DNA of 63,069 nt, taken from a virus. Taxonomy: Duplodnaviria; Caudoviricetes. The stretch spans positions 1 to 63,069 of the IMG/VR virus record IMGVR_UViG_3300037657_000271; one strand, 5' to 3'. Positions 10,987-61,635 of the stretch are shown piece by piece (positions within the stretch are counted from its first letter, which is position 1; each line of letters starts with the position of its first letter). Made by a program: the position numbers and the translations under genes. The notes under the pieces are model-generated. The model did no database searches, was not told where the DNA came from, and saw only the letters and a list, made by a program, of their open reading frames with translations.

Positions 10987-11211
10987 ATGGAGACTAACGC
11001 CAAGGACAAAAATGGGATCCAAACCGGAACCCTTTCCAATGAAGAGAAAGCCAATAGATTGTTGGCGCTCGGCATGCTCATGAAGGTGGCCGGGATCGAC
11101 GATCAAACCATCTCCGGTGAAGTCGGAATCCGGGTTGCCCCAATCGTTTATGGAAAGCATTTCATATGGTCCCAGATTTGGAACCTTGCCCTCGATACCC
11201 TCGAAAAATGA
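10987..11211 (+). CDS. Hypothetical phage protein
   Basis: AAGGAG RBS. Confidence 0.6.
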   Translation: METNAKDKNGIQTGTLSNEEKANRLLALGMLMKVAGIDDQTISGEVGIRVAPIVYGKHFIWSQIWNLALDTLEK

Positions 11212-11261
11212 ATCCCTGGGCTTCAGATTGCCCGGGGGAAACCTCCACACAGGAGACCCAC

Positions 11262-29024: not shown

Positions 29025-31100
29025 ATGGATTTCGACACCATAGGTAGCTCAGGGAAAATCCTCGGAAAGAGAATAGAGAAAACCGAGGATCTTGTTCTTT
29101 GGGTCAAGCAACAAAAAAGCCGGGAACGACTGAGAAACCGGAAAATTTGGCTCGATCAAATTCTGAACATTCTGGCTTTTCACGGAATCAAGGATTTTAC
29201 CGTAACCGATCAACTGGCCTTTACTCGCAGATTGAGCCCTGAACAGCGAAAAATGCTGGATTCGGTTTCCGTGAATTTTGTTCAACCCCACGTCCGGACT
29301 CTGGTTGCAAAGCTGAATAAGGCCCGTCCCCTTCTTGAGTGTGTGCCGTCAACCAGTGATGAGGACGATGTTCAGGCCGCAAAAATTGGGGACAAGCTTC
29401 TCGAATCCGAATGGCAAAGTCAGGGGATGACATTGAAGCGCATCCAACTGACTACTTGGTTGGGCGCTACCGGGAACGCCTTCGTTCACCAATATTTTGA
29501 CCGAAACGCCGGACCGCTCAATCATGGAACTCCTGTCGGGAAAATTCAAAGCCGGGTTCTCAACCTGTTTAAAGTAGTGGTGGAGCCTAATCGGTCGGAT
29601 ATTGAAGACTGCCGATGGGTCATCTTTTCGGAAAAAATCCCCTGCGACCAAATTATGGAGCTGTATGGGGATGTCTACCGCGAAAGGACAGGCGAAGAGC
29701 TGGTTTTACGCGGTGGGACTTCCGTGTTGGAAGATACCGGAGATAGCGTCACCAACAGCTATTTATCAATTATTGGGCTTGGTGATTCGGGTCTTCAAAC
29801 CGATCCCGACTTCATTGAGATTGACACCATCTATCATCTCCCAACCAAGTGGTATCCACGTGGATTTTATGCTGTTGTTGCCAACCGTCGCGTAATTCAC
29901 GTAGAGGACTATCCCTATCTGTTTTTGGGGCGACTGCCAATACTGCACTACCGAGAAATCGCTGCTCCATGGCGGTTTTATGGGGATACGTCATGTAGCG
30001 AAGTTGTAAAAATTGAAGAAAACTATATCCGTTTGCGAAAAGCGGAGCGTGATTACCACCTGGATGGGTTGAATCACGTGTGGTTGCGAAAACGTGGGAC
30101 AAAAACCACGGATGAAGAGCTGCTTTCCACTCAAAACCGCATCGTCGACTACGATGGCGACAAAGCTCCCGAACGGATCCCAGGAGTTCAGGCTCCGGGC
30201 TCGATTTTTAACAGTCTACAGATGACTTTTAAGGAGTTGGAGCGGGCATCCGGGATGAGTGATGCTTCCCGCTCCATTGTTCCAAGTGGCGTTTCTTCCG
30301 GGAGAGCGTTGCTTGCCCTGCAAGAACAAGACGAAACACGCCTGGGTATCACGGTTCAGATGATGGAGCATGAGGATCAGAAGTGGGGGCAAAATTCTCT
30401 CCTAATGGGGAAAACGTATTACTCAGAAAAGCGGAGATACGCCATATCCGGCGACTCTTTGGCCGGCGGAGTGTGGTTTTTTGATCGCGCTGAGCTGAGG
30501 AATACGCAAGATGTCAGGGTTGTTCCTGGCTCCGCGTTGCCTCAGAACAAATATGCCAAGCAGGAGACCGTCATTCAAATGTTTGGCCAAGGAATTCTGG
30601 GCGTACCGATGTCTGAGGAAGCCCAGGTCCGTGCCCGGAGAATGCTGGAATTCGGCCTGGTTGAAGATCTTCATGACGATGACGCGGTTCATGAACAAGT
30701 GGCCGAAAAAGAAAATCAGGCCATGATCTCTATGGCAAATCAGGCTATGCAGGTCACCCAGGGGAATCCCATGGCGATTCAAGCTTTTCTCCCACAAATC
30801 GTCATGCCGGTTCGGAGATACGACAAGCATTTGATTCACGTCCGCAATCACATGCGACGGATCAACATGATGGGGGTTGTAGACAACCCAATTCTTTATG
30901 AGGCCATGGCAATCCATCTTGATCAACACATGATGGCGCTTCAGCCTCCCCCGCAACCAATGGTTACTCCCGAAGCCGCGGCAACGGCTGGAAATCAGCA
31001 AGAACAGGGAGGATCCGCGGGTCCTCAAAATAATTTCCAAAACCAAACACCCCAGGGTGAAGGTGGGCCACAGCTCACCCCTGGAGATTTTCAAAGTTAA
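29025..31100 (+). CDS. Portal protein
   Basis: 691 aa after terL; VN.VQP.V..LVAKL, P.TSDEDD..AA, SGRAL..LQEQD, Q/P-rich tail. Confidence 0.85.
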   Translation: MDFDTIGSSGKILGKRIEKTEDLVLWVKQQKSRERLRNRKIWLDQILNILAFHGIKDFTVTDQLAFTRRLSPEQRKMLDSVSVNFVQPHVRTLVAKLNKARPLLECVPSTSDEDDVQAAKIGDKLLESEWQSQGMTLKRIQLTTWLGATGNAFVHQYFDRNAGPLNHGTPVGKIQSRVLNLFKVVVEPNRSDIEDCRWVIFSEKIPCDQIMELYGDVYRERTGEELVLRGGTSVLEDTGDSVTNSYLSIIGLGDSGLQTDPDFIEIDTIYHLPTKWYPRGFYAVVANRRVIHVEDYPYLFLGRLPILHYREIAAPWRFYGDTSCSEVVKIEENYIRLRKAERDYHLDGLNHVWLRKRGTKTTDEELLSTQNRIVDYDGDKAPERIPGVQAPGSIFNSLQMTFKELERASGMSDASRSIVPSGVSSGRALLALQEQDETRLGITVQMMEHEDQKWGQNSLLMGKTYYSEKRRYAISGDSLAGGVWFFDRAELRNTQDVRVVPGSALPQNKYAKQETVIQMFGQGILGVPMSEEAQVRARRMLEFGLVEDLHDDDAVHEQVAEKENQAMISMANQAMQVTQGNPMAIQAFLPQIVMPVRRYDKHLIHVRNHMRRINMMGVVDNPILYEAMAIHLDQHMMALQPPPQPMVTPEAAATAGNQQEQGGSAGPQNNFQNQTPQGEGGPQLTPGDFQS
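31034..31062 (+). promoter_or_regulatory. Putative late promoter motif, copy 2
   Basis: TTTCCAAAACCAAACACCCCAGGGTGAAG upstream of scaffold/capsid. Confidence 0.6.
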
Positions 31101-32413: not shown

Positions 32414-33643
32414 ATGGCCGACGAAATCAACTATAAGGCGGCAATGGAAGGCGTCTTGAAAGACGTGTATCTGGGAACGATTCGTGATCAGTTCCCCTAT
32501 GGACGTGTTCTCGATTCCTTGTTGGAAAACAACAGCGAGGACTTTGACGGCCTGCAAGGCGTTGTGTCCATTCGGCTGTCTCCCCCCGGGGGAGTCGGTT
32601 ACCGGTCTGAGGATACCGGTGGAGCATCCAGCGCTCTGCCTGATTCCATTCGCCAGACCGTGAAACACGCATACATCCCGATGGCATATTTGTATGCGAC
32701 TTTCGCCATCTCCGGTCCGTATCTTGCCTCCGGCAAAACGACCGCCGGGGCATTCGCGAAACCCATCCAAGATGAAATGGAGCAACTTTCCGAGGCAATT
32801 CGGAAGTATGCCAATGTTTACAACTTCTTGGATGGCTCCGGAGCCTTGGCCAAGATTACCGCCATCGATGGGACCACAATCACCGTCGATCGCTGGTGTC
32901 CCCTGTTCGAAGATACCCGGAAAATCGATTCGTTTACCGCAAAGTCGGACGGAAGCCAACACCTGGATGGAGCAACGATTTCTTCCCCCGATCCGGAAAA
33001 TCTGCAATTTGATGTTGACGCTATTGGCACGGCCGCCGTCGACGATTTCATTTTTGTGGATGGCACTCGCGGAGTTGCTCAGATGGGTCTTACCGGAATC
33101 GTTGATGACGGCACCTTTCTTTCCACTCACCAGGGGGTGTCCCGAACGGATAACTGGAGATGGCGCGGGCTTAAACTGCACAACAACGGTGTGGCCAGAA
33201 AGCTCACGGAAAAACTCCTTACCCAGGCCATTGCGGTGGCTCGGTCTCGCGGAATCAATCCCGACCTGATTGTTGGAACCGCGTTTCAGATGGCCGATTT
33301 GTGCGAAGAGCTTCAGCTTCAACGCCGCTTTGTCAATCCGGAGAAGAAACTCGCGGGTGGATTGCGGGCGCTCGAATTCAACGGCGTCGATTTCACCGAC
33401 GATATGGACGCTCCTCCGGGATACACCTGGATGTTGACGAAAAAGGATCTGGCCTTTTTCGTGCTCAAAATGCTCCACTGGATGCAGGAAGACGGCGCGA
33501 TTTTGTCTCGTGTGAAAGATTCCCATGGCCGCAAGGATTCCTACGAGGGAACCCTGTGCATGTATCGGGAATTGGCGTCCTATCGCAACAACAGTCATAT
33601 CCGGATTGAGGATCTGGAGGAAAACAAACCGATCGGGTTCTGA
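32414..33643 (+). CDS. Major capsid protein
   Basis: 409 aa, strong AGGAGG RBS, position after scaffold; LKDVY..I.DQ, GDG/LDGSG.LA, GL.GIVDDG patterns. Confidence 0.85.
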   Translation: MADEINYKAAMEGVLKDVYLGTIRDQFPYGRVLDSLLENNSEDFDGLQGVVSIRLSPPGGVGYRSEDTGGASSALPDSIRQTVKHAYIPMAYLYATFAISGPYLASGKTTAGAFAKPIQDEMEQLSEAIRKYANVYNFLDGSGALAKITAIDGTTITVDRWCPLFEDTRKIDSFTAKSDGSQHLDGATISSPDPENLQFDVDAIGTAAVDDFIFVDGTRGVAQMGLTGIVDDGTFLSTHQGVSRTDNWRWRGLKLHNNGVARKLTEKLLTQAIAVARSRGINPDLIVGTAFQMADLCEELQLQRRFVNPEKKLAGGLRALEFNGVDFTDDMDAPPGYTWMLTKKDLAFFVLKMLHWMQEDGAILSRVKDSHGRKDSYEGTLCMYRELASYRNNSHIRIEDLEENKPIGF

Positions 33644-34022: not shown

Positions 34023-34472
34023 GTGATTACTCCACGTCACATTGAGGAGACCCTGAAGAAACGGTGGCCCATGTTGTTTCTTTGTTGGAACCCAGACCGA
34101 AAACGGTTTGAGGTTTGGGAACGATTCACCAATGGAGCGTCTGATGACACAAGAAAAATCATGGACTATCAAAACCATGATGGGACTGCGTTACCAGTCG
34201 TGTCCGATACCCTGATTGATTTGATCAACCGGGCGGATACGCGGAAGTGGCCGCTGAAAGATCGGTTGAAGTTGTGGAAGAAAAAGAGTCAAGAAGAGGT
34301 TGAGGCTGTTCGGAAAAAGAACCGCGATTTCACGGAATCCGTTTTGATTGAAGATTATCGCTATATCAACGGCATTCCAACGTTTTTCATGGATCCCCGC
34401 TCCATGCCTCAATGGAAATCCACATTCACGCCTTATCAGGAAAAAATCCTTCGCCGGGATGGACACATTTAA
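34023..34472 (+). CDS. Hypothetical protein
   Basis: AGGAG RBS, GTG start. Confidence 0.65.
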   Translation: MITPRHIEETLKKRWPMLFLCWNPDRKRFEVWERFTNGASDDTRKIMDYQNHDGTALPVVSDTLIDLINRADTRKWPLKDRLKLWKKKSQEEVEAVRKKNRDFTESVLIEDYRYINGIPTFFMDPRSMPQWKSTFTPYQEKILRRDGHI

Positions 34473-35119
34473 TGGCTGCGTTGACTCGATCTCAAATCAT
34501 CGCCAAGTTCGACAAATACCTTTTACAAGGATCGGTTGATGATTTGTGGGATTTCGAGGAAAAAAATGATGCATTCCATAATGCCCTGGACATCATCAGC
34601 GATGAAATCATCAATAACAATCTCCCGTACTACCAAGAGTTCGACCTCGAACTGACGCTTGGAACCGATGGGCGATATGCTCTTCCATCCAGGTGTCGGA
34701 CCGTTATGAACCTTTGGGATAACGATGGTAACGCTATCCATCAACTCAATCCCAAGCATCGGAAACAGGGAAACCAGCATCTTCCCGTGGAAGGATTTTG
34801 CTTGATCAACCATAAGGTAATGTTGCTCAACTTCAATTCCAACCCGGCTGTCCTTTATGCCGACGTGGCCAACTTTCCCACCTACATCGGTGATTGGGAT
34901 GGCACGGCGGATTTGGACGAGGATGCCTTTAAACCAGAACCGCCTTTAGATTCGGAGCGTGGGGCGCGGTTGATTGCCAAGGTAATGAGAGTTTTGGCTC
35001 AAGTAAAAGACGAATCGGTTTCCGAAGCTCAACAGGCGGAAATCACTTCGTTGGTAACGGTATTCGCGTCCCGATTAGGCGGAATGGTCAAAACGGGACT
35101 GAAAATCATAGGTACATGA
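34472..35119 (+). CDS. Putative head-tail adaptor
   Basis: Size and position; MAALTRSQII..W..EE..DA..NAL..G...YALPS pattern. Confidence 0.55.
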   Translation: MAALTRSQIIAKFDKYLLQGSVDDLWDFEEKNDAFHNALDIISDEIINNNLPYYQEFDLELTLGTDGRYALPSRCRTVMNLWDNDGNAIHQLNPKHRKQGNQHLPVEGFCLINHKVMLLNFNSNPAVLYADVANFPTYIGDWDGTADLDEDAFKPEPPLDSERGARLIAKVMRVLAQVKDESVSEAQQAEITSLVTVFASRLGGMVKTGLKIIGT

Positions 35120-42362: not shown

Positions 42363-45300
42363 ATGTCCTCTCCGCTGTTTCAGCGTTTTGCCCTGCCTGT
42401 TTTTGAGAGTCCGGAGTATAACTCCAAGCCCTGGGAAGAACAAAAGGAACTCAGCAAAAACATCATTACCCAATACGAAAGCGCGGGGGGAACGGTTGAT
42501 GATTATTTGGCTGATGCCGATGAATATTTCTCGGCAAAGCCGGTTGCCCTTCCAAAGCCTACCACCAGCCAAGGGAAGGCAAGCATTCATAAGTTTATTC
42601 GAAGCGTTCCCGGATTTCTTGAGCTTCCGGAATCTTCACGAAATAACATTGCCAGGGATTTTGATTCGGATCGCGCCAGTTTCCAGGAAGCATTTTCGCG
42701 GGAACTTGAAAAAATGGATCAAGAGGTTCCTCCGACTGGGGCGATGGGGGTGGAATTCAAGGACAAGCCAAGCCTTCTCCGGGATGCGATTACCCCAGTA
42801 AAGGAGGGAGTTCGGGCGATGGTCCGTGCTCCTCTTCAAATGCCGGGACAATTGACGGAAGTTCTGGGGAAACTTTCAAAGGCCACAACTGGTTATGGTG
42901 ATCTTGCCATTACGTCCGGGAATGAAGCGGCAAGGTTTTTTGATGACCCGTTTTCCATCCCCGGGAAAGCTGTGGAAGCATTTGGGGACATCGGCAAGGA
43001 AACGGTAGGGTATGGAGATGCCGTAAGATCCCTTGGGCAAAAATTACAAAACATTCTTCCCCCAGAAGATATTACCGATCCGACACTCGGGGAGACTTCG
43101 CGCTTTTTAACCTCCTTGGCGGAGCCTCTTGGCTCAGGTGTTGGTTCATCTCTGGGAATGCTGAAAAGCGGGGCAGCCATCGGGCGGGCAGTCACACCGT
43201 CTTTAAAGTCTGGAATTCAGGCTTTACCGGGCGGCCAAAAGGCTATCGACGCCCTTCGACCGCTCCTGGAAAAGATTACTCCAGCCGGATCAACTCCAAC
43301 TGACGTGGCCGCTCAGTTGGCGGGTTCGTATCCGGTCAGCGCCCTCCTTCAGACTGGAGAAGGAATTGACGCGTTGGAAGCTCATCCGGAAACAAAAAAG
43401 ACGAATCCCCTATGGGCTCTCCTGCCTGGAATGGCAACGGCAATGGTTGATACGCCTCTTGCCATGGCGTTGACTGGCAAAGCCAAGCTTCCCAATCCTG
43501 TTCAAAAAGTCATGGACGGATTTGGTGTCCCGGGAAAAACCGCCTTAATGATGGGATCGGAAGGACTGGAAGAAGGCGGGCAAAAACTGGGTACAGAGAT
43601 GACGCCCTATATGGCCATGGGCCGCCTTCCAACCTCTCAGGAGTTTCTGAAACTTTTGGAAGAAAAGGTTGCTCCTGAAGCAATGGGCGGAATGCTGTCC
43701 GGGCCGGTTCTGGGTGCCGGTCATCTTTTCGAAAAAGAACAGAATCAACAAAAATCGGATGGGGAACAGGTCCCTCCATCGGCTTCAACACCAACTCCTC
43801 CAATCCTCACCCCGGAACTTTTTGCCCAAATGAAATCTTCTTTTGGCAATCCAACAGATGGAACGACCTTCGACCTTGGCAAGTGGAAGGAAGCGATGCA
43901 AGAAGTACCGGTACAAGAACCCCAAGAAGAAAACATCATCTCCGAAGCTGTTCGACAATCCCAAACTCTGGAAGAGGCCCAGGCAAAAATCAAAAATGCT
44001 TATTCCGGCATCTACGGGGCAAACACCCAACAGCCGCCTTCTCCTATTGTTGATCAATCTCCCCAGCCAGAGCAAGGGGTTGGTATCATTCAAGAAACCA
44101 GAGAGATAAAGGACCTCAAGAGCGAACTGAAAGAACTTGCGGAAGCCTGGAAAAGTCTGAAGGTTGCGGGACAAGGCGTTACTGATCCGGCCGGAAAAGA
44201 GCAGATTCAAAATATGCTTCAGGCTCTGTCGGCAAAAGGGAAGCCTATTAAGGCTCAGATTGAAAGCCGTGGGCAAATTGAAGCTCGGATCAAAAGCATT
44301 CAGGAGGAGCAAAAACAGCTTGAGGTGGCCATGGCTGCCGCTCAGAATAACGCCATTGCCCGAAGAACAATTAAGAAGCGAATAGCAGATAACCAGCGAA
44401 TGATTGAGGGGCTATCTTCGGGACAAATTAACGTTACGGAACGTCAGGCCGATTTGCTGTCGAAGGATCCTATGATCGGTCAGCCAGCCGAAGCAACACC
44501 CACCTTGAAGGCTTTGGCTCTACTTGATCAGATGGATCTAAAAGCGCAAGACAGAAAGCCAAAAATTGAACCGCCAAAACCGCTTTCTGTCGCCGATTTC
44601 CCCCTTTTAAGCGCCATTCGAGGAATGGGCGGAATTCGAAAATCGACAGGCGAAAATGGCGGAGAATATGATGCTTCGATAAAAGCGCTGGAAGAGGCTG
44701 GATTCAAGGCGACACCCGATATTTTTCGCGCCATTAATGGCACTGGAAAACTTGCCCCGGATCGCATGGCAAATCAACTTTTTGACGCCGGGCTAATTCC
44801 CGAAAATTCTCCCGAAACAATGTGGAACGCCCTGCGGTCTGAAGTCCTCGGCTTGGCAAGATCAAGAAAGGAAGCCAAGTCCGAGAAAAACCGCCTGGCC
44901 GAAGAGGAATTACGCCAACAAGATTGGGAAAATAACCAAAGCGAACCGGTTACCGCCGGCACGCTTTCCCGCGGTGACCAATTTACCATTCAGGGGGAAA
45001 AATACCGAGTGATTGATGAGGGTGACAGTGCCCTCAAACTGAAGGACGGCATTGAGTTTTGGATGCCTTACGACGCCACGATGCCCGATGGAACGATCAG
45101 AATCGACAGAGGCTCTTTGGCAAAAGAAACTTCCAAACCCGGGCCCGCTTCCGTTGACAAAACTCCGGTTACCGAACCCACTTTTGAAGACATGGCAACC
45201 ATGGACGCTCTTGATGAGCAATGGGGGGAACTTGGGCAAAAACCAAGCCCAAACGAACCGAAAACCAACGCTCAAAAAGCGGTGGAGTATTTCAGCATGC

Positions 45301-48300
45301 TTGATGGTCAGGAAGTTCCGAAGCCCATTTTATCCAAACAGAAAACATTTGAGGATTTGGAGAAGGGGATTCAACCATCATTTGATGATCTGCAATCCAC
45401 GCCCCCTTCTCAAACTCAAAAAATATTGCCCGACCAGGTTCAAAATCCCGAAATTTCCGGAATATCAAAAAGTGTTGGGGTTATTCCAGCCGAAAGAGCT
45501 CTCCCGTTTGTTCCTCAGGTGGATGTCGAATTGGAGGAAATGGTTTCCTCGGGGGCTTTTGACCGGCAAACCGCCCAAAAAACCAGGGAGGTTGGGGCCG
45601 CTCCGGTAAATGAATCGCTGGGAGTGGATGATTCGGTTTCATCCAATCTCTCAAAAAAAGAGCTTGAAAGGATGGTGGATGCCAAGGAAGCTCTTGATGT
45701 CGAAGGTAAACTGGCAAGCGTAGTCACCACTGATTTTGAAATTCTGAATCTGGCCGGCATGAACTCAGTTTATGGTGATCAGGGGTCAAACCGGATGATT
45801 TCCAGAATCTTGAACCGGATCCGGGAACGGGTGAACACGGAGCTGGCTGAAGATTACCCTGACTCAAAATACTATTTCAACCTTTGGCACATGGGAGGCC
45901 CGGCCTTCAGGATGAATTTGGTGGCAGACTCTCCCGTTGCAAAATTTATGGACAGTGTTATGGACAATGTTCAGCGAGACATTTCGGAGCTGCAAGGACA
46001 AATAGCCGCCCCCGACATTAAAACCGGCCAACCGGTAAAATTGGCAGATGTTAAACACTCAAAGGATTTGACGAAGAGTGGAACCGGGGTTATGTTTGCT
46101 TTACTCCCCGTTGACACAAAAGAAGAGATTGGTTCGGTTTTTGCCGACAATAAGGCCAATCTCCAAAAACAAGGAGGGCAAGATGACCTTGTCAAAAGAT
46201 GGAAAGCAGGAGCCAATCCAGACGAGATCGTTCGACTCACTCAGCTCGTGGGAAAAACAATTCGTGGAGGAGTTGAGAGCATCGAGAGAATTGACGGACG
46301 AAGAGTGGGTGGAACTGGACAAGAGAATCGACAAGGCCCTGGAAAAGCCACTGAACGAGTTGAGCCAAATCCTCGAAGCCGCCGGGTTTCCCCGCCGAAA
46401 ATAGACGATGTAGCTAAAGCTCTTGGCCTGTCAGACGATCAGGTCAAAGCGCTTTGGGACCGCGGGGTTTTTCGGATCGACTCATCCTATGGTCTTTTGG
46501 ACTCTCGCAATCAAAAAGCCGCCAAAGCTATGTTCACCAATATTTCCGAGATGGCCCGTATTGCAGGAAAACCCATGTCTTTGGTTATGATCGACCATGC
46601 CGGGATTTCCGCCTCCAACAAAATCTTTGCCGAAGAGCTTGGGGAGTCCCAGGGCAAGAAAGTTACCGAAGCCATTGTTCGAAAGTCCCTGGAAATGGTT
46701 GATATCGTATTAGAAGAAGCTGGAACCACGATTCAAAAAATGCGGGTGGGGGGGGATGAAAACTTAGGGTTTTCGACTCTGACCCCCAAAGATGCAACCA
46801 AAGCTATGAATCGAGCCGCAAAGCGAATCAAGGAACGATTTGCGGAACACGGGTTTGACGCCCTTCCAAACCTCAAACCAGAAAAAACCCCGTACCAAGA
46901 AACTTGGGGCCCAGGGATCTATTTTTCCGTGATTCCGATCGACGGAAAAACCACCTTCGAGGAAGCAATGGACAAGGCCGGAATCGGTGTGGAGCTTGCC
47001 AAGGAGGCGGTTATTGAAGAGGCAAAAGCCTTCATTGAAAAACGCCAACAGGAGCAAGAAAAAGCGCTTGCCGCTTCAAAGGGAAAAATTGAAAAACTTG
47101 GGGGACCGGATCTCATTTCCCGGAAAAAGGTTCTGACGTTCCTCGAAAAGGTTTTTCCCGTCACCGAAGAGGAAGTTCAGCTTTGGTGGGATGGTGGCGA
47201 TTTGGGGGAAAAGAAAAACCGAATTGCCCAGGCTGCGGTTGATTACCAAGCGGACATTGAACACGCACTAATGGAGGGGGCAGGAGCGGAAGCGGTGGAC
47301 TTGTTGGCCCGCGCTTTGACGGATATTAAAATCCCGTCACGCCGCCCACGGTTTTCCCGCCAGGAAAGGGAAACATCAGCCAAGGGAAAGGACGATGACA
47401 ATGCCGTGCATTCTTTATCCAAGCGGACTGAGAATCAGTTTCGCCGACCCGGAAACCGAGGAGGAACGGAAGGAGATGCGGGATCGAGTAGAACGCGTGA
47501 AAGAGGCGTGGAGGGAAGCGATCAAGAACGGCTTGGACGCCTCGAAGTGTCCTTATCAGTTGAAGAGCGGGACAAAGGATACCTCGGAAGCCTGAAAGCG
47601 ATTGAAACTCCAACCGTTTCACAGGCGTTGATTCGTGACGCTTTCCAGGATCTCTTTGGAAAACGAGTTATCTTTTTTGATGATAACTCCCCGGTTGCCA
47701 AGAAACGTGGCGGGCGGTCGGTAATGAACGGCGCTGTTTTAACCGATGATTCCGACACCATTTATATTGCGACTTCCGCCGCGCATCCGGGGATGGTTGT
47801 TGCCGGTCATGAGCTGCTTCATACCATTCGAATGGATGATGCTGATCTTTACGATCAACTTTTGGAGGCAATAACCCCACAAATCAAGGATACCACCAGA
47901 TTCAAGGAGACTATGACCCGGAGAGGGCAAACGAACCTTTCGGAGTCTCAAATTGTTGAAGAGCTCTTGGGTGATTTCCTGGGTGATCGAATGGGTACTC
48001 GAGATTTCTGGAACAATCTGTCTCAAAAAAATCCAACTCTGTTCGAGCGTGTTGCCGGTGCCTTTCGTCGGTTCTGCGACCTGATACGGGGTTGGTTTTC
48101 CCGGCAACCCAATTATCAGTCCGATCAGTATTTTCGGGATATTCAGGCTGCATCGGAGGTTGCGGAGAGGGTTGTAGCGGAATACGCTCAGAGAAAACGA
48201 AATGCCCGATCTCAAACCGGAGTTGGAAAGTTCCTGAATGCCATGGAGGACCGGTTTCCCGGAGAAAAAGAGACCGAAACCGAAGCTGCTCGGTCCAGAT

Positions 48301-51300
48301 TTTCGTATGCGGGTGAAAAGTCCCTGAAAAATCTTCCGGCAAAAGAGGAGAAAATCAAAAAAAACAATCTTGAAGTGGCCAAAAAAATGGATGTTTCCAA
48401 CATGGATACGGAAAAAATCCGCCTTGCAACTGGCTGGTTCAAGGGGCCATATGATGGGAAATGGCGGTATGAAGTTGATGACTCTTCGGCAAGCCTGACC
48501 GAAACCTTCCAAAACCTGAAAAACAACAAGATTGTGAAGCTTGAAAAAGTGTTGTCTCATCCCAAATTGTTTAAAGCCTATCCCTGGATGCGGGAAGTGT
48601 TGTTTGTCTCTGATGGGGAAATGTCTCCCGGTTCCGCCCTTTTTAGCCCAGGCCTTGGAAAGCACGGCCAAATTACAATGTCTGACAAGTTCCCCATTGG
48701 CAAAAATGGCAACCTTTTTTCGGACGAAAAGATTACTCTTCTTCATGAAATTCAACACGCTATCCAAAGCAATGAAGGCTTTGCACGCGGGGGAAGCCTT
48801 GCTCACGCCGCAATGGAAAAGAACGCTGCCAGAAAGGAATACCTCCTTTGGGGTGACGCTTTTTCTCTGAAAACGTGGGCCGAAGAAAACAACCTGGGAA
48901 TTCGGGAGGCGGTAAAACCTCTCGAAAACTACTTCGGGGATGAGCTTCTTGATCCAGAAGGAGCTATCAATCTGGCCGAGTCGTTTAGCCGGGAAACCTT
49001 GGCAGAAAGAGCCGAAACAGCAAAGAGCAAAATGAGCGGAGACGATATTGACCTTTATCGCCGCCATGCCGGCGAAATCGAATCCCGAGATGTTGAGGAT
49101 CGAGCCGGCCTGAACGAAAAAGAAAGAAAAGAATACGAACCGTTTTCTTCCGCCGATGTATCCCCTGAAGATGCCATTGTAAGGTTTGGGTCCAATGATT
49201 CTGCCAAAATCGGAGATATCCAAGCCAATGCTCCAAACATTCGGTTTTCCCGGAAGGATTCTGCCAAAATTGAAGATGTCCAAAACAAAACTCCTGAAGA
49301 AGCACAAAAAGAATATCTTGGTGAACCGCTAAAGGTTCCGGAAGTCACCATGCAAGACATTGTTGAAACTGCCAAAGGAAAAAAGACCCGGGAGATCACC
49401 GAAGCCATTCCGGCCATGACCCCCAAGGACAAATCATTTCTGGAAAAACTGGGAGGGATGCTTGGAACACTGGGCCAGGGGTTTGTTTCCCTTGTGGGGC
49501 CATTGGCGTCTGAAGTATCCGAGGCCAGGGCCAAAGAGTTGGGCGTAGAAAAAAACAAGCTAGATCTCCACGCTTTGAAACAATGGCTTGAATCATTGCG
49601 GGGAAAAGTCATGGGAGAAATAGAAGAAGCACTGATGCGTGCCCATATCAACGCCGAGTCCGATAAAATGGTGAAATGGATTGAAGAGTCGACTTCTCCT
49701 GGAGACTTCCGCGATTTTATTTTGGACAAATACCGCCGAATCGTCTACCCATGGCACGCTTTCGGAGCCATTCAGCGGAAATTGTTCTTGATTGCTGAGC
49801 GGGTCTATTGGGATGGGGCCAAAATTGCCCCCAGTCCTGGATTTCGTGTGGAAAAAGTGGAGAAAAAGACCAAATCCGATGGGAGCGTGTACTTGGAAAA
49901 ATCCTACCAATACCAGCAGGACGTTTCCCCTGACCTGGTGATGGAAAATTTCCAGGCACTTCCTCAGTGGGCACAAGAGGCAATCACCGCCAGAGCCCAA
50001 CACAACGAAACGTTCCGCAAAGAATTGGTGGAAAAGAAAATCCCTGAACGAATTCAGAAAAACGAAGTTCAGACGCGGATTGTGGAAGCCCAAATCGCCG
50101 AGGCCGAGCAACGCTTGGTTGATCTGGAATCCATGCCGGATGCAGATAAATCCGAAGGGGTCATTGAGGCCATTAAAAAACAGAGCAACAAACTTAAATC
50201 CCTGCGTCGCGACTGGGGAAAGCTCCAAACTCAGCTACGGTTGGATCGGGATAACCGCGGGCATTATGGATACGTCCATCACTATGGATATCCAACCGAG
50301 ATCATGGGTGAGGCCACGGAAGGGACACCCCCGGTCATCAAGCCGGGAACGGCTGAATGGTATGATGCGGTTCCCCCTTCCTGGAAATATCGCCAGGGAA
50401 CTCGCGGATATCGTGACGTTTCTTTGGTGGAAGCAGATTTGATGCAACGTCGCGGGGAAACTCGGGCGGAATTCGAAAACAAACTGCTTTTGGAGATCGA
50501 GGATACCTATGGGGTCAACGCGGAAGACTACCGAGAGAACAAGGAGGAATGGGACGCCCGGGCCGGGAACAAAGGCTGGGCCGCCATCGATTCCCTTGAT
50601 AAAAAAGACGCTCAGGGGAATCCTCTCAAACTTATGCTTCCTGGGGACGTATACCGCACCTATTTCAATGTGCGCCATCCCGAAGGGAACACCACGTTGG
50701 GCGCGGAAGCCGCAAAGGTGTTTGAAGCACTTGACTCCCTGACCGGGCCGATGAATGAAGCCCTGTTGTGGCATCCCACCAAATTTTTCCGCGATATCCT
50801 TTCCGGACCAATCCATGTCATGGAGTTCATTCGGGATTATGGCACTCGCAACATGAACGATCCCGGGAAGGTGGCCGCGATGATTCCCGCCGCTTGGGAT
50901 GCCTTGAAAAAAGCGTATTCTCCGATTGCTCCCGACGTTTGGCGAAAGTATTCCCCGGGAACTCTTCGAGAGTTTTCGGAGAGTCTGTACTTTCAGAAAG
51001 ACCGAGAACCCGGCGTGATCGTTCGTGGGCTTGACCGGCTTAGTCGAGCGGTTTCCGAGTTTCCTATTGGGTCAGTATTAGCCCAGGTTTTCCGCACGGT
51101 AAATCTTGCCGGGGCTGGGGACATTCCCCTTCGCCGCTTCTTCACGATCCTCGGGGAGAACCTGGCCGACCAAGAAAAGCTGACCGGAGCCGAGCGCGAA
51201 AAGTTCATTCAGAACATGGTTTCCCAATACGGCTTCGACACCAAAAATCTGACCCCGGGACTGGCATTTTTCAGGGGCCTGGATGAAAGCCGGGCCTCAA

Positions 51301-52442
51301 AAATTATGGGTACGGCCTCCAGAGCAATCGCTCCGTTTTTCGGGTATCCCTTTTTGGCCGCCAAGTCCATGCTGATCGATCCGTTTTATCGCGGACTTCC
51401 CGATGTGGCTCAGGGAGGCAGAAAAGCAATGTTGGAGGGACTGACACCGGAGGCGCAAAAACAACTTCTTTCCGGATCATCCGAAATTCTGCGCCCGGTG
51501 TTGTGGGGGTTGCTTGCCATGGCCGCCCACGGCTGGGATGACGATGACGAAACGGTAGCCGGCAATCTTCAGGGATTGGAGAATCTTAATCCATTGGCGA
51601 GAACGATCGGGCGAATTCGAGTCGGAGCAAATGAAAAGGGCGAAAGCTGGTTATCGACCAAAGGCTACGGCATAGCAGGATTGGCTGATGCTATGGTTGA
51701 GGCTCTGTTTTCCGACAAGGATAAATCGGTAAGCGATCTGGCCGCCGAGGTTATTTCCGTCAGTCCGAATTTGCAGGTATTCCTGCATGGGATTGGATTT
51801 CCAAGCCCCTACTCGAAACGGACGCCTTTCAAAAACATCCTGGCACAATATCTCACGACGATCATTCTTCCCCAGGTGATTAGGGCAGGACCCGACATGG
51901 CCAAATACTTGTCCCTTGCCATGGATGACAAAACTATCCCCAATCGCGAGAAAATGAGCCTGGTTCAAACGATCTTGAGTCAGTTCGGTGTTCCGGCAAA
52001 AGTTCAGGAAAGTTTGGGGACTGGGCCGGTTCCTCGCCGACAGACCAAAGACAATAAAATGATCGAGCTGGATCCCACCATTGAGATCATCAAACTACTT
52101 GGACCCAATATCCGGCATATTCCCTATACCCTGTCTGCTTCTGAAGCTGGTGAGGCTATGACTACGCTGGACATTATGAAAGAAAAATCGGCCAAGGCTC
52201 ACAAATACCTTTCCGCGCAATGGGGGCAGGGTTTGAGTTCGCAAAAGGCGGCTGAAAAAATCGGATTGTCCCGGGCAATGGAATTCCGCCAGGCTCTTGA
52301 GCAAATTGATATGGATATCGCCGATCGGGAACGTCGCTTGCCCAAAGCCATTATGAACCTTCCAGAGCCATATCGGCAAGCTGCGGACATTAAAAGCAAA
52401 AAGCGGCGGGAAAGTTTCTTGGATTACCTCGACAAAGAATAG
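42363..52442 (+). CDS. Giant polyvalent internal virion protein (two GGDEF-like domains, zincin MPTase-like, LPD23-like)
   Basis: 3359 aa; WHMGGPAF and RVGGDEN; GHELLH..EELLGD; IRLATGWFKGPYDGKWRYEVDD and LLHEIQHAIQ..EGFARGG. Confidence 0.85.
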   Translation: MSSPLFQRFALPVFESPEYNSKPWEEQKELSKNIITQYESAGGTVDDYLADADEYFSAKPVALPKPTTSQGKASIHKFIRSVPGFLELPESSRNNIARDFDSDRASFQEAFSRELEKMDQEVPPTGAMGVEFKDKPSLLRDAITPVKEGVRAMVRAPLQMPGQLTEVLGKLSKATTGYGDLAITSGNEAARFFDDPFSIPGKAVEAFGDIGKETVGYGDAVRSLGQKLQNILPPEDITDPTLGETSRFLTSLAEPLGSGVGSSLGMLKSGAAIGRAVTPSLKSGIQALPGGQKAIDALRPLLEKITPAGSTPTDVAAQLAGSYPVSALLQTGEGIDALEAHPETKKTNPLWALLPGMATAMVDTPLAMALTGKAKLPNPVQKVMDGFGVPGKTALMMGSEGLEEGGQKLGTEMTPYMAMGRLPTSQEFLKLLEEKVAPEAMGGMLSGPVLGAGHLFEKEQNQQKSDGEQVPPSASTPTPPILTPELFAQMKSSFGNPTDGTTFDLGKWKEAMQEVPVQEPQEENIISEAVRQSQTLEEAQAKIKNAYSGIYGANTQQPPSPIVDQSPQPEQGVGIIQETREIKDLKSELKELAEAWKSLKVAGQGVTDPAGKEQIQNMLQALSAKGKPIKAQIESRGQIEARIKSIQEEQKQLEVAMAAAQNNAIARRTIKKRIADNQRMIEGLSSGQINVTERQADLLSKDPMIGQPAEATPTLKALALLDQMDLKAQDRKPKIEPPKPLSVADFPLLSAIRGMGGIRKSTGENGGEYDASIKALEEAGFKATPDIFRAINGTGKLAPDRMANQLFDAGLIPENSPETMWNALRSEVLGLARSRKEAKSEKNRLAEEELRQQDWENNQSEPVTAGTLSRGDQFTIQGEKYRVIDEGDSALKLKDGIEFWMPYDATMPDGTIRIDRGSLAKETSKPGPASVDKTPVTEPTFEDMATMDALDEQWGELGQKPSPNEPKTNAQKAVEYFSMLDGQEVPKPILSKQKTFEDLEKGIQPSFDDLQSTPPSQTQKILPDQVQNPEISGISKSVGVIPAERALPFVPQVDVELEEMVSSGAFDRQTAQKTREVGAAPVNESLGVDDSVSSNLSKKELERMVDAKEALDVEGKLASVVTTDFEILNLAGMNSVYGDQGSNRMISRILNRIRERVNTELAEDYPDSKYYFNLWHMGGPAFRMNLVADSPVAKFMDSVMDNVQRDISELQGQIAAPDIKTGQPVKLADVKHSKDLTKSGTGVMFALLPVDTKEEIGSVFADNKANLQKQGGQDDLVKRWKAGANPDEIVRLTQLVGKTIRGGVESIERIDGRRVGGTGQENRQGPGKATERVEPNPRSRRVSPPKIDDVAKALGLSDDQVKALWDRGVFRIDSSYGLLDSRNQKAAKAMFTNISEMARIAGKPMSLVMIDHAGISASNKIFAEELGESQGKKVTEAIVRKSLEMVDIVLEEAGTTIQKMRVGGDENLGFSTLTPKDATKAMNRAAKRIKERFAEHGFDALPNLKPEKTPYQETWGPGIYFSVIPIDGKTTFEEAMDKAGIGVELAKEAVIEEAKAFIEKRQQEQEKALAASKGKIEKLGGPDLISRKKVLTFLEKVFPVTEEEVQLWWDGGDLGEKKNRIAQAAVDYQADIEHALMEGAGAEAVDLLARALTDIKIPSRRPRFSRQERETSAKGKDDDNAVHSLSKRTENQFRRPGNRGGTEGDAGSSRTRERGVEGSDQERLGRLEVSLSVEERDKGYLGSLKAIETPTVSQALIRDAFQDLFGKRVIFFDDNSPVAKKRGGRSVMNGAVLTDDSDTIYIATSAAHPGMVVAGHELLHTIRMDDADLYDQLLEAITPQIKDTTRFKETMTRRGQTNLSESQIVEELLGDFLGDRMGTRDFWNNLSQKNPTLFERVAGAFRRFCDLIRGWFSRQPNYQSDQYFRDIQAASEVAERVVAEYAQRKRNARSQTGVGKFLNAMEDRFPGEKETETEAARSRFSYAGEKSLKNLPAKEEKIKKNNLEVAKKMDVSNMDTEKIRLATGWFKGPYDGKWRYEVDDSSASLTETFQNLKNNKIVKLEKVLSHPKLFKAYPWMREVLFVSDGEMSPGSALFSPGLGKHGQITMSDKFPIGKNGNLFSDEKITLLHEIQHAIQSNEGFARGGSLAHAAMEKNAARKEYLLWGDAFSLKTWAEENNLGIREAVKPLENYFGDELLDPEGAINLAESFSRETLAERAETAKSKMSGDDIDLYRRHAGEIESRDVEDRAGLNEKERKEYEPFSSADVSPEDAIVRFGSNDSAKIGDIQANAPNIRFSRKDSAKIEDVQNKTPEEAQKEYLGEPLKVPEVTMQDIVETAKGKKTREITEAIPAMTPKDKSFLEKLGGMLGTLGQGFVSLVGPLASEVSEARAKELGVEKNKLDLHALKQWLESLRGKVMGEIEEALMRAHINAESDKMVKWIEESTSPGDFRDFILDKYRRIVYPWHAFGAIQRKLFLIAERVYWDGAKIAPSPGFRVEKVEKKTKSDGSVYLEKSYQYQQDVSPDLVMENFQALPQWAQEAITARAQHNETFRKELVEKKIPERIQKNEVQTRIVEAQIAEAEQRLVDLESMPDADKSEGVIEAIKKQSNKLKSLRRDWGKLQTQLRLDRDNRGHYGYVHHYGYPTEIMGEATEGTPPVIKPGTAEWYDAVPPSWKYRQGTRGYRDVSLVEADLMQRRGETRAEFENKLLLEIEDTYGVNAEDYRENKEEWDARAGNKGWAAIDSLDKKDAQGNPLKLMLPGDVYRTYFNVRHPEGNTTLGAEAAKVFEALDSLTGPMNEALLWHPTKFFRDILSGPIHVMEFIRDYGTRNMNDPGKVAAMIPAAWDALKKAYSPIAPDVWRKYSPGTLREFSESLYFQKDREPGVIVRGLDRLSRAVSEFPIGSVLAQVFRTVNLAGAGDIPLRRFFTILGENLADQEKLTGAEREKFIQNMVSQYGFDTKNLTPGLAFFRGLDESRASKIMGTASRAIAPFFGYPFLAAKSMLIDPFYRGLPDVAQGGRKAMLEGLTPEAQKQLLSGSSEILRPVLWGLLAMAAHGWDDDDETVAGNLQGLENLNPLARTIGRIRVGANEKGESWLSTKGYGIAGLADAMVEALFSDKDKSVSDLAAEVISVSPNLQVFLHGIGFPSPYSKRTPFKNILAQYLTTIILPQVIRAGPDMAKYLSLAMDDKTIPNREKMSLVQTILSQFGVPAKVQESLGTGPVPRRQTKDNKMIELDPTIEIIKLLGPNIRHIPYTLSASEAGEAMTTLDIMKEKSAKAHKYLSAQWGQGLSSQKAAEKIGLSRAMEFRQALEQIDMDIADRERRLPKAIMNLPEPYRQAADIKSKKRRESFLDYLDKE

Positions 52443-52970: not shown

Positions 52971-53675
52971 ATGAAAACCCTGAATAAACCGAGAGTCATG
53001 GCCATTTTGATGGTCATGGTTTTCCTGGCTTTCACCGGATGGGCGGAGACAGCCAAGGGACCCAAAATGGGTCCTCTCCCCATCACTCGCGGAGGAACGG
53101 GAGCGACAACGGCCGCGGCGGCTCGGACGGCTCTTGGAGTATCCGACTCCACTTCGACCACGGCCTATGTGGATCAGTCGATCGAGACTCACAGTCTTGA
53201 TAGCTCCAGTCATGGCTGTGATACTGTGGCATCTGCTTCGGCCTTGGCTCTCAAAGCCGACGTCAACGGGTCTGGTTCGGAACGCTTCCAGGCCAACGTT
53301 TTTTATGGTGGCGGGCTTGGTCATGAATTGACCAACGGTGATTCTGTTCTGGCGTCTGCCGGTTCTCTCGTCACCATAAGCACCACAAGCGGAAAGTTTG
53401 CGATTACCACCACCGGGGGATATCCCGATGGGGTTTTGTTTGCGGATACCGCAACCAACACGGCCGGATATGTCCTGATGGCAGGAGTGGCTCACAACAT
53501 CATTGTTCCCGGCAATGCCACGAGCGGTGACTATATTTTCATCGACGGCACCACTGCGGGCGCGGCTTCAACCACCGCGAATCCTCCGCAGACTGCCACC
53601 GAAACGTGGCAATACATTGGCCGTTGCATTCTGACCACCACCACCGGAACTACGTCAATCATCATCAACCGATAA
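52971..53675 (+). CDS. Fibre/decoration-like protein with signal peptide
   Basis: Signal peptide, LPITRGGTGATTAAAARTALGV fibre motif, cement-like C-domain. Confidence 0.7.
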   Translation: MKTLNKPRVMAILMVMVFLAFTGWAETAKGPKMGPLPITRGGTGATTAAAARTALGVSDSTSTTAYVDQSIETHSLDSSSHGCDTVASASALALKADVNGSGSERFQANVFYGGGLGHELTNGDSVLASAGSLVTISTTSGKFAITTTGGYPDGVLFADTATNTAGYVLMAGVAHNIIVPGNATSGDYIFIDGTTAGAASTTANPPQTATETWQYIGRCILTTTTGTTSIIINR

Positions 53676-59578: not shown

Positions 59579-61225
59579 CTATCCTTTAAAGGGAGTCAAG
59601 ATGGGAATTTTTTTTTGCGGTCCTGAGTTTCCGACCTTGAATCTGGAGTCGGGACGTCTGGGAATTGAACGGCGTGTGGATATGATAACTCCCGGGCTCC
59701 CGGCAATGAGACCGTTAGGACGGTCACCGAGAAAATCGGTGGCCGTTTCTATTTTTAGCACGTCCTTGCATACCCGAACCTTCAAGTGCAGGGTTTCCAG
59801 CAGTTCACGTAGTTGCCGGCCTTCCGAGACATTCAGGCGGTTTTTTAGAAGCCCGACAAAATCCCGAACATCGTTCTCAGAAACTTCAATAGCGGTGACC
59901 TTCCCCACCTTCTCCGGTAGTCTCTCGATGCTTCCTTTTATCTTCTCCCGAGAATCTGCCAGTTCCAGGAGTTTTCTCTTTACAACTTCCCGGGGAATAT
60001 CTCCCAGGTGAAGTTCGTCCATCAAATCGGATTCATGCTTCTGGGTGGCGGCCAACTGGCGTTGCTGTCGGGTCAGTTCTTCGGCATCGGTCTTGGCGCT
60101 GTCGCCAATTTCCTTTTTGTACAATTCGAGGGCCGTTCTCACGTTAGCCGGAGTAAGGATTTTTTCCAACAATACATCCTTCACTGAGCCGACAAGATCG
60201 ACTTCTTTTATGTGCCGCCGATTGCCGCAGGTGCGGGTGTCACGATGACTTCGGCACACCATATACCAGCCGCGATTGCCCGGGTTTGATCCGATAACGA
60301 AGCTTCCACCACACTCTCCGCAGACAATCATGCCTGCCAGGGGGTGTTGAGACTGCGAGACCGACCGTGGCCGCTGGCTGACATGGCAGCGAGCCAGACG
60401 GGCCTGAACGGTGGTCCAGGTTGCGTGATCCACCAGCACAGGAAGGGAGTTCGGAACACGAACCCAGGTAGCGGGGTCTTTTTCCATACGCCAGATGTTA
60501 GTGCCGATGTAAACTTCATGATGCAACATAAAACTGATTGTGTTAGGGGCCCAAGCTTTTGCCTTTCTGGGCTTTAAACCCTTTTCCCGGAGTTCGGCCA
60601 TAATCGTTTTTAACCTGGCCCCTTCCGAATATCGGTGGAAAATAAACCTCAGGACTGGGGATTCATCTTCATTGATTTCCAGGACTGTTCTCGTCTTCTG
60701 GGTTGCTGGATCGAAGACTCTCTTGTTTTTATAACCATATGGGGCTTCGCCACCACTCCGGAATCCGCGCCTTGTGTTTGTCGCTTGGCCGCTCTTTGTC
60801 TCGGCGGCCAGGTTTTTTGAATAAAACTCGGCAATACCTTCCAGCATGACTTCAAGGAGATTCCCTGCCGCCGTTTCACTGTCGATGGCTTCAAGTGCAG
60901 AAATAACTTTTATTCCATGGATTCGGAGTTTTAGTTTGTATTTTCTTGATACCTCGACATCCCGGGCAAAACGATCAAACTTTCGGACAATGATCACATC
61001 AAAGGACCGGGGCTTCCGCAGAGCTTCTTCAATCATCCTCTGAAAGGCAGGCCGATCTTCCACGCGACCGGACTGGGCTTCCTCCCGATAAATTTTCACA
61101 ACAGTTCCCTGAAGGGAATCCGCTTTGCGGGTGCATTCCTGAATCTGAGTTTCGATGGTCGCACTGTCCTGCTGCTCAGAAGAGAACCTGGCGTAAATGG
61201 CAACTCTACAAGATTTCTGATCCAT
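59579..61225 (-). CDS. Large serine recombinase of the second element
   Basis: YARFSS, RPAFQRMI, DRFAR, HPLAGMIVCGECG; clearly homologous to 1993-3492. Confidence 0.95.
   Translation of the reverse strand: MDQKSCRVAIYARFSSEQQDSATIETQIQECTRKADSLQGTVVKIYREEAQSGRVEDRPAFQRMIEEALRKPRSFDVIIVRKFDRFARDVEVSRKYKLKLRIHGIKVISALEAIDSETAAGNLLEVMLEGIAEFYSKNLAAETKSGQATNTRRGFRSGGEAPYGYKNKRVFDPATQKTRTVLEINEDESPVLRFIFHRYSEGARLKTIMAELREKGLKPRKAKAWAPNTISFMLHHEVYIGTNIWRMEKDPATWVRVPNSLPVLVDHATWTTVQARLARCHVSQRPRSVSQSQHPLAGMIVCGECGGSFVIGSNPGNRGWYMVCRSHRDTRTCGNRRHIKEVDLVGSVKDVLLEKILTPANVRTALELYKKEIGDSAKTDAEELTRQQRQLAATQKHESDLMDELHLGDIPREVVKRKLLELADSREKIKGSIERLPEKVGKVTAIEVSENDVRDFVGLLKNRLNVSEGRQLRELLETLHLKVRVCKDVLKIETATDFLGDRPNGLIAGSPGVIISTRRSIPRRPDSRFKVGNSGPQKKIPILTPFKG
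59696..59705 (+). repeat. attR core GCTCCCGGCA
   Basis: Identical to the tRNA 3' end 2002-2011; read in the same frame (AGS) in both integrases. Confidence 0.85.
59720..59756 (+). terminator. Terminator hairpin inside the second integrase
   Basis: ACGGTCACCGA-GAAAA-TCGGTGGCCGT followed by TTCTATTTTT. Confidence 0.6.
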
Positions 61226-61242
61226 AAATCCTCCGAGTAATG

Positions 61243-61635
61243 CTAAGCGTCTGGAGCCTGAAGTATGGTTACTACAGGGCAACGGCCCTTTCCGCGTTTT
61301 ACCGAAACAAGGTTAACCGTTTCAAGATCCTTCAACCCCCGGTAACCGGTGCTTCGACATATTGAAAACTCTTGGAGAAGGCCTGTGGTCAGCCTTACTG
61401 TCGCGGACATTTTCAAACCTGCTTTATACCAGAGAAGAAGTCCGAGTGCCAGTGCGTTTTTTCCCGCTAAAGCGGCAAAGGTCACCCAGTCCCAGGGGAT
61501 GGGGCGAAGGAACCTTTTGCCGAGAGGTATTTTCAGGGTGTAGTTGTTGCCGGGTTCCATAGCCGAGGCGGGCAAACCCGTTGTTTCTGACGAAATCTCC
61601 TCAATTTTAAACTTATGCGGTCTCATGACAATCAT
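61243..61635 (-). CDS. Winged-HTH protein
   Basis: PIPWDW..ALALGLLLW..RSTGYRGLKDLE..LVSVKR..GR.PVVT. Confidence 0.7.
   Translation of the reverse strand: MIVMRPHKFKIEEISSETTGLPASAMEPGNNYTLKIPLGKRFLRPIPWDWVTFAALAGKNALALGLLLWYKAGLKMSATVRLTTGLLQEFSICRSTGYRGLKDLETVNLVSVKRGKGRCPVVTILQAPDA

Follow-up and report, generated by a model that had tools for sequence, protein, structure and literature searches.

A divergent tandem of one degenerate and one seemingly intact GGDEF domain in a giant polyvalent phage protein: a candidate nucleotide synthase working in cis

GGDEF domains were placed in 2017 by Iyer, Burroughs, Anand, de Souza and Aravind among the domains of the phage polyvalent proteins, which are predicted to be packaged in the virion and injected into the host (PMC5512222). 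One such protein, from a prophage of Acetonema longum, joins a GGDEF domain with SWI2/SNF2, methyltransferase (MTase), zincin peptidase and ADP-ribosyltransferase (ART) domains, and possible interference with host responses that use similar nucleotides was suggested for the polyvalent GGDEF domains (PMC5512222). The enzymology of the family, as set out by Hallberg et al. in 2019, gives each monomer one nucleoside triphosphate (NTP) site and makes the canonical enzymes homodimers, in which the third residue of the motif binds the Mg that sits on the beta and gamma phosphates of the NTP in its own site, and the fourth, a Glu, is positioned to take the proton from the 3'-OH of the NTP in the opposite half-site (PMC6456294). 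A single bond calls for only one protomer to supply the metal-binding Asp and the general-base Glu that acts across the dimer (PMC6456294). Here we describe a locus in a provirus record of IMG/VR (IMGVR_UViG_3300037657_000271; Duplodnaviria, Caudoviricetes), analysed over its whole length of 63,069 bases and called the window below, where a giant open reading frame (ORF) carries two extremely divergent GGDEF-like domains in tandem, the first degenerate (domain A) and the second with its catalytic residues in place (domain B). The parts of the protein on which the argument turns are the following, with residues numbered in amino acids (aa) of the giant protein.

42363..52442, + strand: giant ORF (P0001), uninterrupted, 3359 aa, polyvalent protein with the tandem GGDEF pair
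45660..46187, + strand: domain A, aa 1100-1275, degenerate GGDEF fold
45738..45740, + strand: codon of E1126, in the column of the beta1 metal-binding Asp (MAFFT alignment with DgcZ)
45894..45908, + strand: GGPAF, aa 1178-1182, where GG[D/E]EF is expected, without either catalytic carboxylate
46188..46466, + strand: linker of about 93 aa (1276-1368), predicted disordered, rich in G, R, P and E
46467..47015, + strand: domain B, aa 1369-1551, GGDEF fold, catalytic set intact
46593..46595, + strand: codon of D1411, the beta1 metal-binding Asp (DgcZ alignment)
46749..46763, + strand: GGDEN, aa 1463-1467, preceded by R1461; metal Asp and general-base Glu, with N replacing the final F
47001..47003, + strand: codon of K1547, which aligns with the conserved Lys in the C-terminal helix of DgcZ (...YEGKQTGRN)
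47808..47822, + strand: HELLH, aa 1816-1820, first zincin-type HExxH, by motif position

An initial annotation, made from the letters of the DNA, had proposed tandem GGDEF-like domains at 45700-47010, a span that corresponds to aa ~1113-1549 and has both domains inside. All the motifs that it quoted are real and belong to the one ORF: EILNLAGMNS starts at aa 1126 (nucleotide 45738) and WHMGGPAF at aa 1175, both in domain A, whereas domain B holds DSSYGLLDSR at aa 1373, LVMIDHAGISASN at aa 1407, RVGGDEN at aa 1461 and FEEAMDKA at aa 1532. Its proposal of a GGDEF fold for both halves, for which structure prediction had been named as the check, held equally well, with Z-scores of 14.1 (A) and 14.7 (B) to solved GGDEF domains. 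In the AlphaFold2 (AF2) models the GGDEF palm fold spans the whole of each domain. Modelled alone, domain A reached a predicted local distance difference test (pLDDT) of 77.3 and a predicted template modelling score (pTM) of 0.69, and its comparison by VIA-align, a method independent of Foldseek, with 48,161 representatives of the PDB put GGDEF proteins at all of ranks 1-32 (Z 14.1-10.9), headed by 5euh with a root-mean-square deviation (rmsd) of 2.5 Å over 138 of 164 residues. Only after them come GTP cyclohydrolase III (Z 10.4) and class III cyclases (Z at most 10.3). Domain B, taken as residues 270-452 of the tandem model, superposes on 6eib with Z 14.7 and an rmsd of 2.3 Å over 141 of 157 residues, and all 50 structural matches listed for it are GGDEF-domain proteins, by their titles or, for SadC, PA3702, ImcA and DosP, as we take them to be. 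Foldseek agrees with a GGDEF fold for the tandem model as well as for domain A, for which it gave 70 matches at E<=1e-3 with GGDEF topmost. As a lead, 23 of 30 neighbours in the ESM Atlas share the Pfam set of the top match, which is GGDEF (top score 0.96).

These folds are reached at an identity of only 9-20% to solved GGDEF domains, and the bridge in sequence is made by a handful of relatives. A phmmer search with aa 1100-1586 against 1.84 billion cluster representatives found four genuine ones, listed here with their scores against the Pfam GGDEF model (PF00990; cut-off 23.8 bits).

P0002: 4,661 aa, E 8.6e-38, Pfam GGDEF below threshold at 17.0 bits
P0003: 797 aa, E 2.5e-21, no Pfam GGDEF match
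P0005: 1,903 aa, E 9e-6, Pfam GGDEF passed at 37.7 bits
P0006: 632 aa, E 4e-4, Pfam GGDEF passed at 24.7 bits

A further candidate, P0004, was rejected as a spurious repeat protein in which 24 residues were matched six times, and it was kept out of all alignments. Word-indexed homologue searches returned the protein itself or nothing, and a single-sequence phmmer search of the PDB gave only a chance match (E 1.4). With the five sequences joined in one profile (A3), the PDB yielded 31 matches at E<=10 with a best E of 1.6e-5; by title 25 of these are GGDEF proteins or diguanylate cyclases, three bear uninformative names and three are unrelated (E>=0.3). All four matches at E<=1e-3 are GGDEF, and both halves of the profile contribute. 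Because bridging relatives pass the Pfam GGDEF threshold, the five-sequence profile matches GGDEF structures and the folds agree, domains A and B are almost certainly true homologues of the GGDEF family, and the assignment of both to its fold is secure.

The residues of the two domains were compared in a MAFFT alignment in which all ten domains, two from each of the five proteins, were set against the GGDEF domain of Escherichia coli DgcZ. In the GGDEF family the Lys and the Arg of the C-terminal helix contact phosphate. Both the metal-binding Asp and the GG[D/E]E stretch are present in B and neither is in A, as the initial annotation had read them (E1126 and GGPAF in A; D1411 and GGDE at 1463-1466 in B). 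Domain A also has H1176 in the column of the Arg that precedes the motif, and it retains the conserved Lys as K1269, with Q1273 in place of the Arg four residues on; the alignment of this C-terminal Lys and Arg contains gaps in both domains. Since its metal Asp is replaced by E1126 and its GGDEF by GGPAF, domain A is, as far as its residues tell, catalytically dead, a predicted pseudo-enzyme. It may still hold a nucleotide, because the nucleotide-contacting N1134 (the sugar-face Asn) and K1269 are kept. Domain B, on the same grounds, appears to keep everything needed for a phosphodiester bond: D1411, the sugar-face Asn N1419, R1461, GGDE at 1463-1466 and K1547. The Arg four residues after that Lys reads I1551. 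An RxxD I-site, looked for five residues ahead of the motif, was found in neither domain, positions -9 to -6 reading KYYF in A and GTTI in B. For guanine recognition, the Asn is kept in both domains and the Watson-Crick-face Asp is replaced in both, by N1143 in A and by K1432 in B, whose position is uncertain owing to a 4-residue insertion just upstream of G1431-K1432. The claim made earlier for this guanine-specifying position was right about the loss of the Asp in both domains and about SN in A (S1142-N1143), but it probably erred in B, where the equivalent pair appears to be G1431-K1432 and not the TE proposed; T1435-E1436 lies one helical turn away, as judged from the alignment with DgcZ and the predicted helix register. 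We give B a somewhat better than even chance of being catalytically active.

The same architecture recurs in the relatives. All four carry two GGDEF-like domains in tandem, and three of them (P0002, P0003 and P0006) combine one dead with one live domain, as does the window protein. In P0002 and P0003 it is again the first domain that is dead, with S (P0002) or E (P0003) in the Asp column and the motifs GGPN and GGPK, and the second that is live. P0006 presents the reverse, with a live first domain (GGDEL) and a dead second one (E in the Asp column; GASRF). Because BLAST pairs window domain B with the first domain of P0006 (E 3.7e-7) and window domain A with its second (E 7e-6), this arrangement reflects a swapped order and not the decay of the other domain. 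A small tree of the domains groups the B-type domains of the window protein, P0002 and P0003 with a support of 99 in the Shimodaira-Hasegawa-like approximate likelihood ratio test (SH-aLRT), and the first domain of P0006 joins them at 84; the A-type clade has a support of 80, the two domains of P0005 pair at 89, and the second domain of P0006 sits on a long branch with its placement unresolved. Despite an overall identity of 24-28%, D1411, R1461, GGDE and K1547 are conserved in the B-type domains of all relatives.

P0002 and the window protein share the tandem module alone, in a single high-scoring segment pair (1049-1568 against 687-1198, E 1e-43); P0002 carries SNF2, methyltransferase and a true C-terminal LPD38 domain according to Pfam, and no HExxH motif was found in it. 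In P0003, as in the window protein, the tandem pair is followed some 260-290 aa later by a HELLH region, which in the window protein covers aa 1744-1861 (about 118 aa; nucleotides 47592-47945) and matches residues 651-761 of P0003 with 37% identity (BLAST, E 4.9e-20). As P0002 shares only the module, and P0003 the module plus the HELLH region, the GGDEF pair appears to pass as a single cassette from one giant protein to another that is unrelated to it elsewhere. The pair and the HELLH peptidase region are thereby seen to travel together in at least two proteins.

How might such a pair work? In the mechanism that we propose, A and B would dock on each other within one chain, as the protomers do in a diguanylate cyclase dimer. 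The Mg site of B would hold B's own NTP, and Glu1466 would activate the 3'-OH of an NTP held by A, forming one bond. The reciprocal bond could not be catalysed by A, for which reason a linear 5'-pppNpN would be expected as the released product; a cyclic or longer product would need rebinding of the intermediate, as in Cas10, in which a live palm domain works together with a dead one. The base-reading Asp being missing, a non-canonical preference, other than strict GTP, is suggested, and since neither an I-site nor a sensor domain is there to restrain it, the enzyme would act unregulated from the first moments of infection. An intramolecular pseudo-heterodimer of this kind had been put forward by the initial annotation. 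It finds indirect support in the tandem present in four of four relatives, the dead/live combination in three of four, the apparent transfer as a cassette and the one-protomer mechanism (PMC6456294), but it is not borne out by the tandem model, with its pTM of 0.40 and disordered linker, and the operation of the pair as a cis A/B unit is thus put forward as a tentative model, somewhat short of an even chance.

The best overall explanation is a tandem divergent GGDEF pair with A as pseudo-enzyme and B live, acting as a cis one-bond synthase in a packaged protein, to which we give a rough probability of 0.45. Several results weigh against it. The Pfam GGDEF model found no match at E<=10 in the whole protein, its halves or the 487-aa region, nor in a six-frame search of the record, and a profile of the three closest sequences (A2) gave nine PDB matches, seven of them GGDEF, with a best GGDEF E of 0.024 and, in first place, a chance GGDEQ in a designed armadillo repeat protein. 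Both AF2 models were built on a 5-row alignment, and the tandem one has a mean pLDDT of 59.2 and a pTM of 0.40, with domain cores at 70-83 and no confident A-B interface. In the same model pLDDT falls below 50 at model residues 167-257 and 261-284. Three positions of domain B differ from those of active cyclases (N for F in the motif, I1551 and K1432), and changes at base-contacting positions can inactivate GGDEF enzymes (Hallberg et al., PMC6456294). Both domains of P0005 are live (GGDEV), so that a dead partner is not obligatory. Pattern scans of viral, genome and metagenome contigs recovered no relative, hence no genomic context for any of them, and tblastn and megablast searches against phages and plasmids gave no match. 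Finally, beyond terminase, portal and capsid no neighbouring structural gene could be identified with PHROG or Pfam, which leaves the virion role of the protein to position and precedent.

That position is given by the following features, together with the remaining landmarks of the giant protein.

26970-28988, + strand: large terminase (phrog_38, 3e-110)
29025-31100, + strand: portal (phrog_156, 6.8e-20)
32414-33643, + strand: major head protein (phrog_14242, 3.9e-44)
48303..48497, + strand: LPD23 (PF18838), aa 1981-2045, Pfam E 9.7e-14, 51.3-53.7 bits against a cut-off of 27
48744..48758, + strand: HEIQH, aa 2128-2132, second HExxH, by motif position
52971-53675, + strand: weak tail-fibre-like gene downstream of the giant gene (phrog_11393, E 1e-4, plus three further tail-fibre PHROGs)

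The giant gene is co-oriented within this late block, with the head genes before it and the tail-fibre-like gene after it. Immediately upstream stand genes of 193, 710, 316 and 322 aa, none with a PHROG or Pfam match, and the order from these to the giant gene and on to the fibre-like gene resembles that of short-tailed phages, as an impression only. No tape-measure, tube or sheath family of PHROG or Pfam matched the giant gene or its neighbours. A tape-measure role for the giant gene was discarded, the sole match of that kind (phrog_8892, E 0.007) falling on a 235-aa ORF at 34412-35119. The C-terminal third of the protein (aa 2251-3359, 1109 aa; nucleotides 49113-52439) has no Pfam match above threshold; language-model features place it, as a lead only, with phage clusters in which LPD38 (100% of members) or LPD39 (28%) occurs. 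With a GGDEF pair, LPD23 and two HExxH motifs united in 3359 aa, and with terminase, portal and capsid genes in the same provirus, this product belongs to the polyvalent proteins as Iyer et al. 2017 define them, and the claim of the initial annotation that the pair lies in such a protein of the late or structural block stands on LPD23, the two HExxH motifs and the position of the gene. On account of that position, of the LPD domains and of the argument of Iyer et al. for packaging and injection, the giant protein is probably delivered with the virion, entering the cell with the DNA. Opposite the giant gene, an antisense ORF of 522 aa (47739-49307, - strand) occupies a 529-codon stop-free run in the codon-aligned reverse frame. 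When the codon order of the giant gene was shuffled (n=300), the longest antisense run averaged 289 codons with a standard deviation of 73, and 3 of 300 shuffles reached the observed length; the antisense ORF is probably for the most part an effect of codon usage and is unlikely to be a real gene.

Other ways of reading the same domains have to be considered. Domain B could behave as a symmetric cyclase, two copies of the giant protein meeting through their B domains to make a cyclic dinucleotide; A would then serve only for regulation or nucleotide sensing, as degenerate GGDEF domains do in GGDEF-EAL proteins. Such a pairing would suit the complete catalytic set of B, the two live domains of P0005 and the several copies in which internal virion proteins usually occur. 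So would the homodimeric nature of the canonical enzymes, with one NTP site per monomer (PMC6456294). Against this, each of the four sequences with one dead domain retains an A-type next to a B-type domain, even where the order is swapped, which like the transfer of the pair as a unit is hard to explain if A is dispensable for catalysis, and no dimerisation element was identified beside B, so that we consider this pairing somewhat unlikely. It is also conceivable, and a little less likely still, that nothing is synthesised and that the pair is a nucleotide-binding module, either a sensor of NTP that registers arrival in the cytoplasm and switches on self-processing by the zincin-type peptidase, or a binder of host signalling nucleotides. 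Degenerate GGDEF domains are commonly nucleotide receptors, and B shows three departures at substrate contacts. The window protein and P0003 also share the pair together with the HELLH region some 260-290 aa downstream, and autoproteolytic processing of polyvalent proteins by their own peptidase domains has been proposed (Iyer et al., PMC5512222). However, conservation of D1411, R1461, GGDE and K1547 at 24-28% identity argues for selection on catalysis, an RxxD for binding of cyclic di-GMP (c-di-GMP) is absent from A and B, and P0002 has the pair without any HExxH.

The place of action can be disputed as well as the chemistry. The protein might serve in a cell that is already infected or lysogenic, raising for instance the level of a cyclic dinucleotide at a late stage of infection or during lysogeny, with no delivery by the virion. 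PHROG and Pfam identified no tail or internal-protein genes around it, and the provirus has a CI-like repressor and serine recombinases, as this would lead one to expect; but the gene is co-oriented in a late block that runs from head genes to a tail-fibre-like gene, and LPD23 with an LPD38-like end (the latter a lead) is usual in proteins for which packaging is predicted (PMC5512222), which makes action restricted to the infected or lysogenic cell the most improbable of these alternatives.

Returning to the cis synthase as the preferred reading, its most specific form would be an obligate cis pair, spread as a mobile cassette, that makes on arrival in the cell something released by no canonical GGDEF enzyme, a linear 5'-triphosphate dinucleotide or, through rebinding as in Cas10, an oligonucleotide, with non-guanine specificity; with it the phage would block or forestall nucleotide-based immunity or prime its own early transcription. 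We regard this full version as doubtful; if true, it would be the first virion-delivered synthase of a nucleotide signal and a new catalytic mode of the GGDEF fold. The locus would offer a compact version to work with, about 460 residues with one dead and one live GGDEF domain. Should the pairing in cis be correct, the GGDEF fold could be used asymmetrically, like Cas10 or the mammalian adenylyl cyclases, and phages would bring their own nucleotide-synthesising enzyme at DNA entry, which bears on the arms race around the cyclic oligonucleotide-based antiphage signalling system (CBASS), type III CRISPR and c-di-GMP. Should B be inactive, the pair would show how an ejected protein can turn a cyclase fold into a sensor of nucleotides.

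The rest of the provirus record holds several features of interest. Two large serine recombinases (Resolvase, Recombinase and Zn_ribbon_recom) lie near the ends of the record, at 1993-3492 and 59579-61282, both on the - strand, and the 3' end of the left one is overlapped by a tRNA-Leu (1931-2013, + strand), which may mark the attachment site. A CI/LexA-like repressor (6947-7771, - strand) with two helix-turn-helix regions and Peptidase_S24 fits a temperate phage, and the protein of 379 aa encoded between repressor and recombinase (5716-6855, - strand) has an HNH endonuclease motif. A cluster of tRNA genes (Asp-GTC, Tyr-GTA and Trp-CCA) occupies 8706-9488 in the early region of the phage, and a recombination and replication block at 11166-15972 (+ strand) encodes RecT (406 aa), an SMC_N-like protein (620 aa) and a UvrD-type helicase (576 aa). 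A protein with Amidase_3 and LysM (1-1500, - strand) is cut off by the left edge of the record; it may be either an endolysin of the phage or a cell-wall amidase of the host.

Set beside the described systems, the window protein is closest to the polyvalent proteins of Iyer et al., with which it shares a giant multi-domain phage product, a GGDEF domain joined to a zincin-type HExxH and an LPD, a place among late genes and a predicted injection (PMC5512222). The proposal of the initial annotation that a polyvalent GGDEF protein could interfere with host nucleotide signalling is sound as an idea, but it was already made in that work. The difference lies in the dead-plus-live tandem, missed by Pfam GGDEF, where the text of Iyer et al. 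has one GGDEF domain, a count that its figures and online files may extend; from the Acetonema longum protein it also differs by having, in Pfam searches, no SNF2, MTase or ART domain. Full-text literature searches found no experimental test of a phage polyvalent GGDEF domain, and among the titles and abstract openings listed for 'tandem GGDEF' there was no GGDEF-GGDEF pair, the phrase in one abstract referring to a tandem GGDEF-EAL. The canonical diguanylate cyclases (DgcZ, DosC, WspR and PleD; PF00990) resemble both domains in fold, and B in its metal Asp, sugar-face Asn, Arg-x-GGDE and Lys. The window protein differs from them in lacking a sensor domain, a dimerisation domain and an RxxD I-site, in the N that closes its motif, in having other residues for the guanine-specifying Asp (N1143, K1432) and in holding two domains in one chain, one of them dead. 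The Hypr GGDEF enzymes (GacA and Bd0367, which make 3',3'-cyclic GMP-AMP) likewise have the Watson-Crick-face Asp replaced and an Asp as third residue of the motif, but they carry Ser at that face and are Rec-regulated homodimers (PMC6456294), whereas the residue here is Lys in B (K1432) and Asn in A (N1143), with Asn also in several relatives. Since Lys or Asn stands in place of Ser, product specificity is not transferable from the Hypr enzymes.

A looser likeness is found with Cas10 and with the C1/C2 pair of mammalian adenylyl cyclase, which have two palm or cyclase-fold domains per chain and a single catalytic site. Cas10 has further domains, namely HD, zinc-binding and helical ones. Cas10 chains are among the top Foldseek matches of the tandem model (E 2e-6 to 2.5e-4; 9arw_A at E 2.1e-6 over about 500 columns), but the alignments have an rmsd of 22-25 Å, so that the separate domains match and their arrangement does not. 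No Cas10 chain occurs among the 50 rows listed for domain A alone, no Cas10 family of Pfam matches the window protein, an HD domain is absent, and no CRISPR context was seen, a CRISPR array not having been searched for in the window. Membership of Cas10 was set aside because only the separate domains match. Class III cyclases are likewise more distant, each single domain being closer to GGDEF (Z about 14) than to them (Z at most 10.3). The likeness to Cas10 and adenylyl cyclase is, as we read it, an analogy of design and not membership. A GGDEF domain in an injected polyvalent protein was thus already predicted in 2017, and what this locus adds is a conserved, extremely divergent dead/live tandem cassette.

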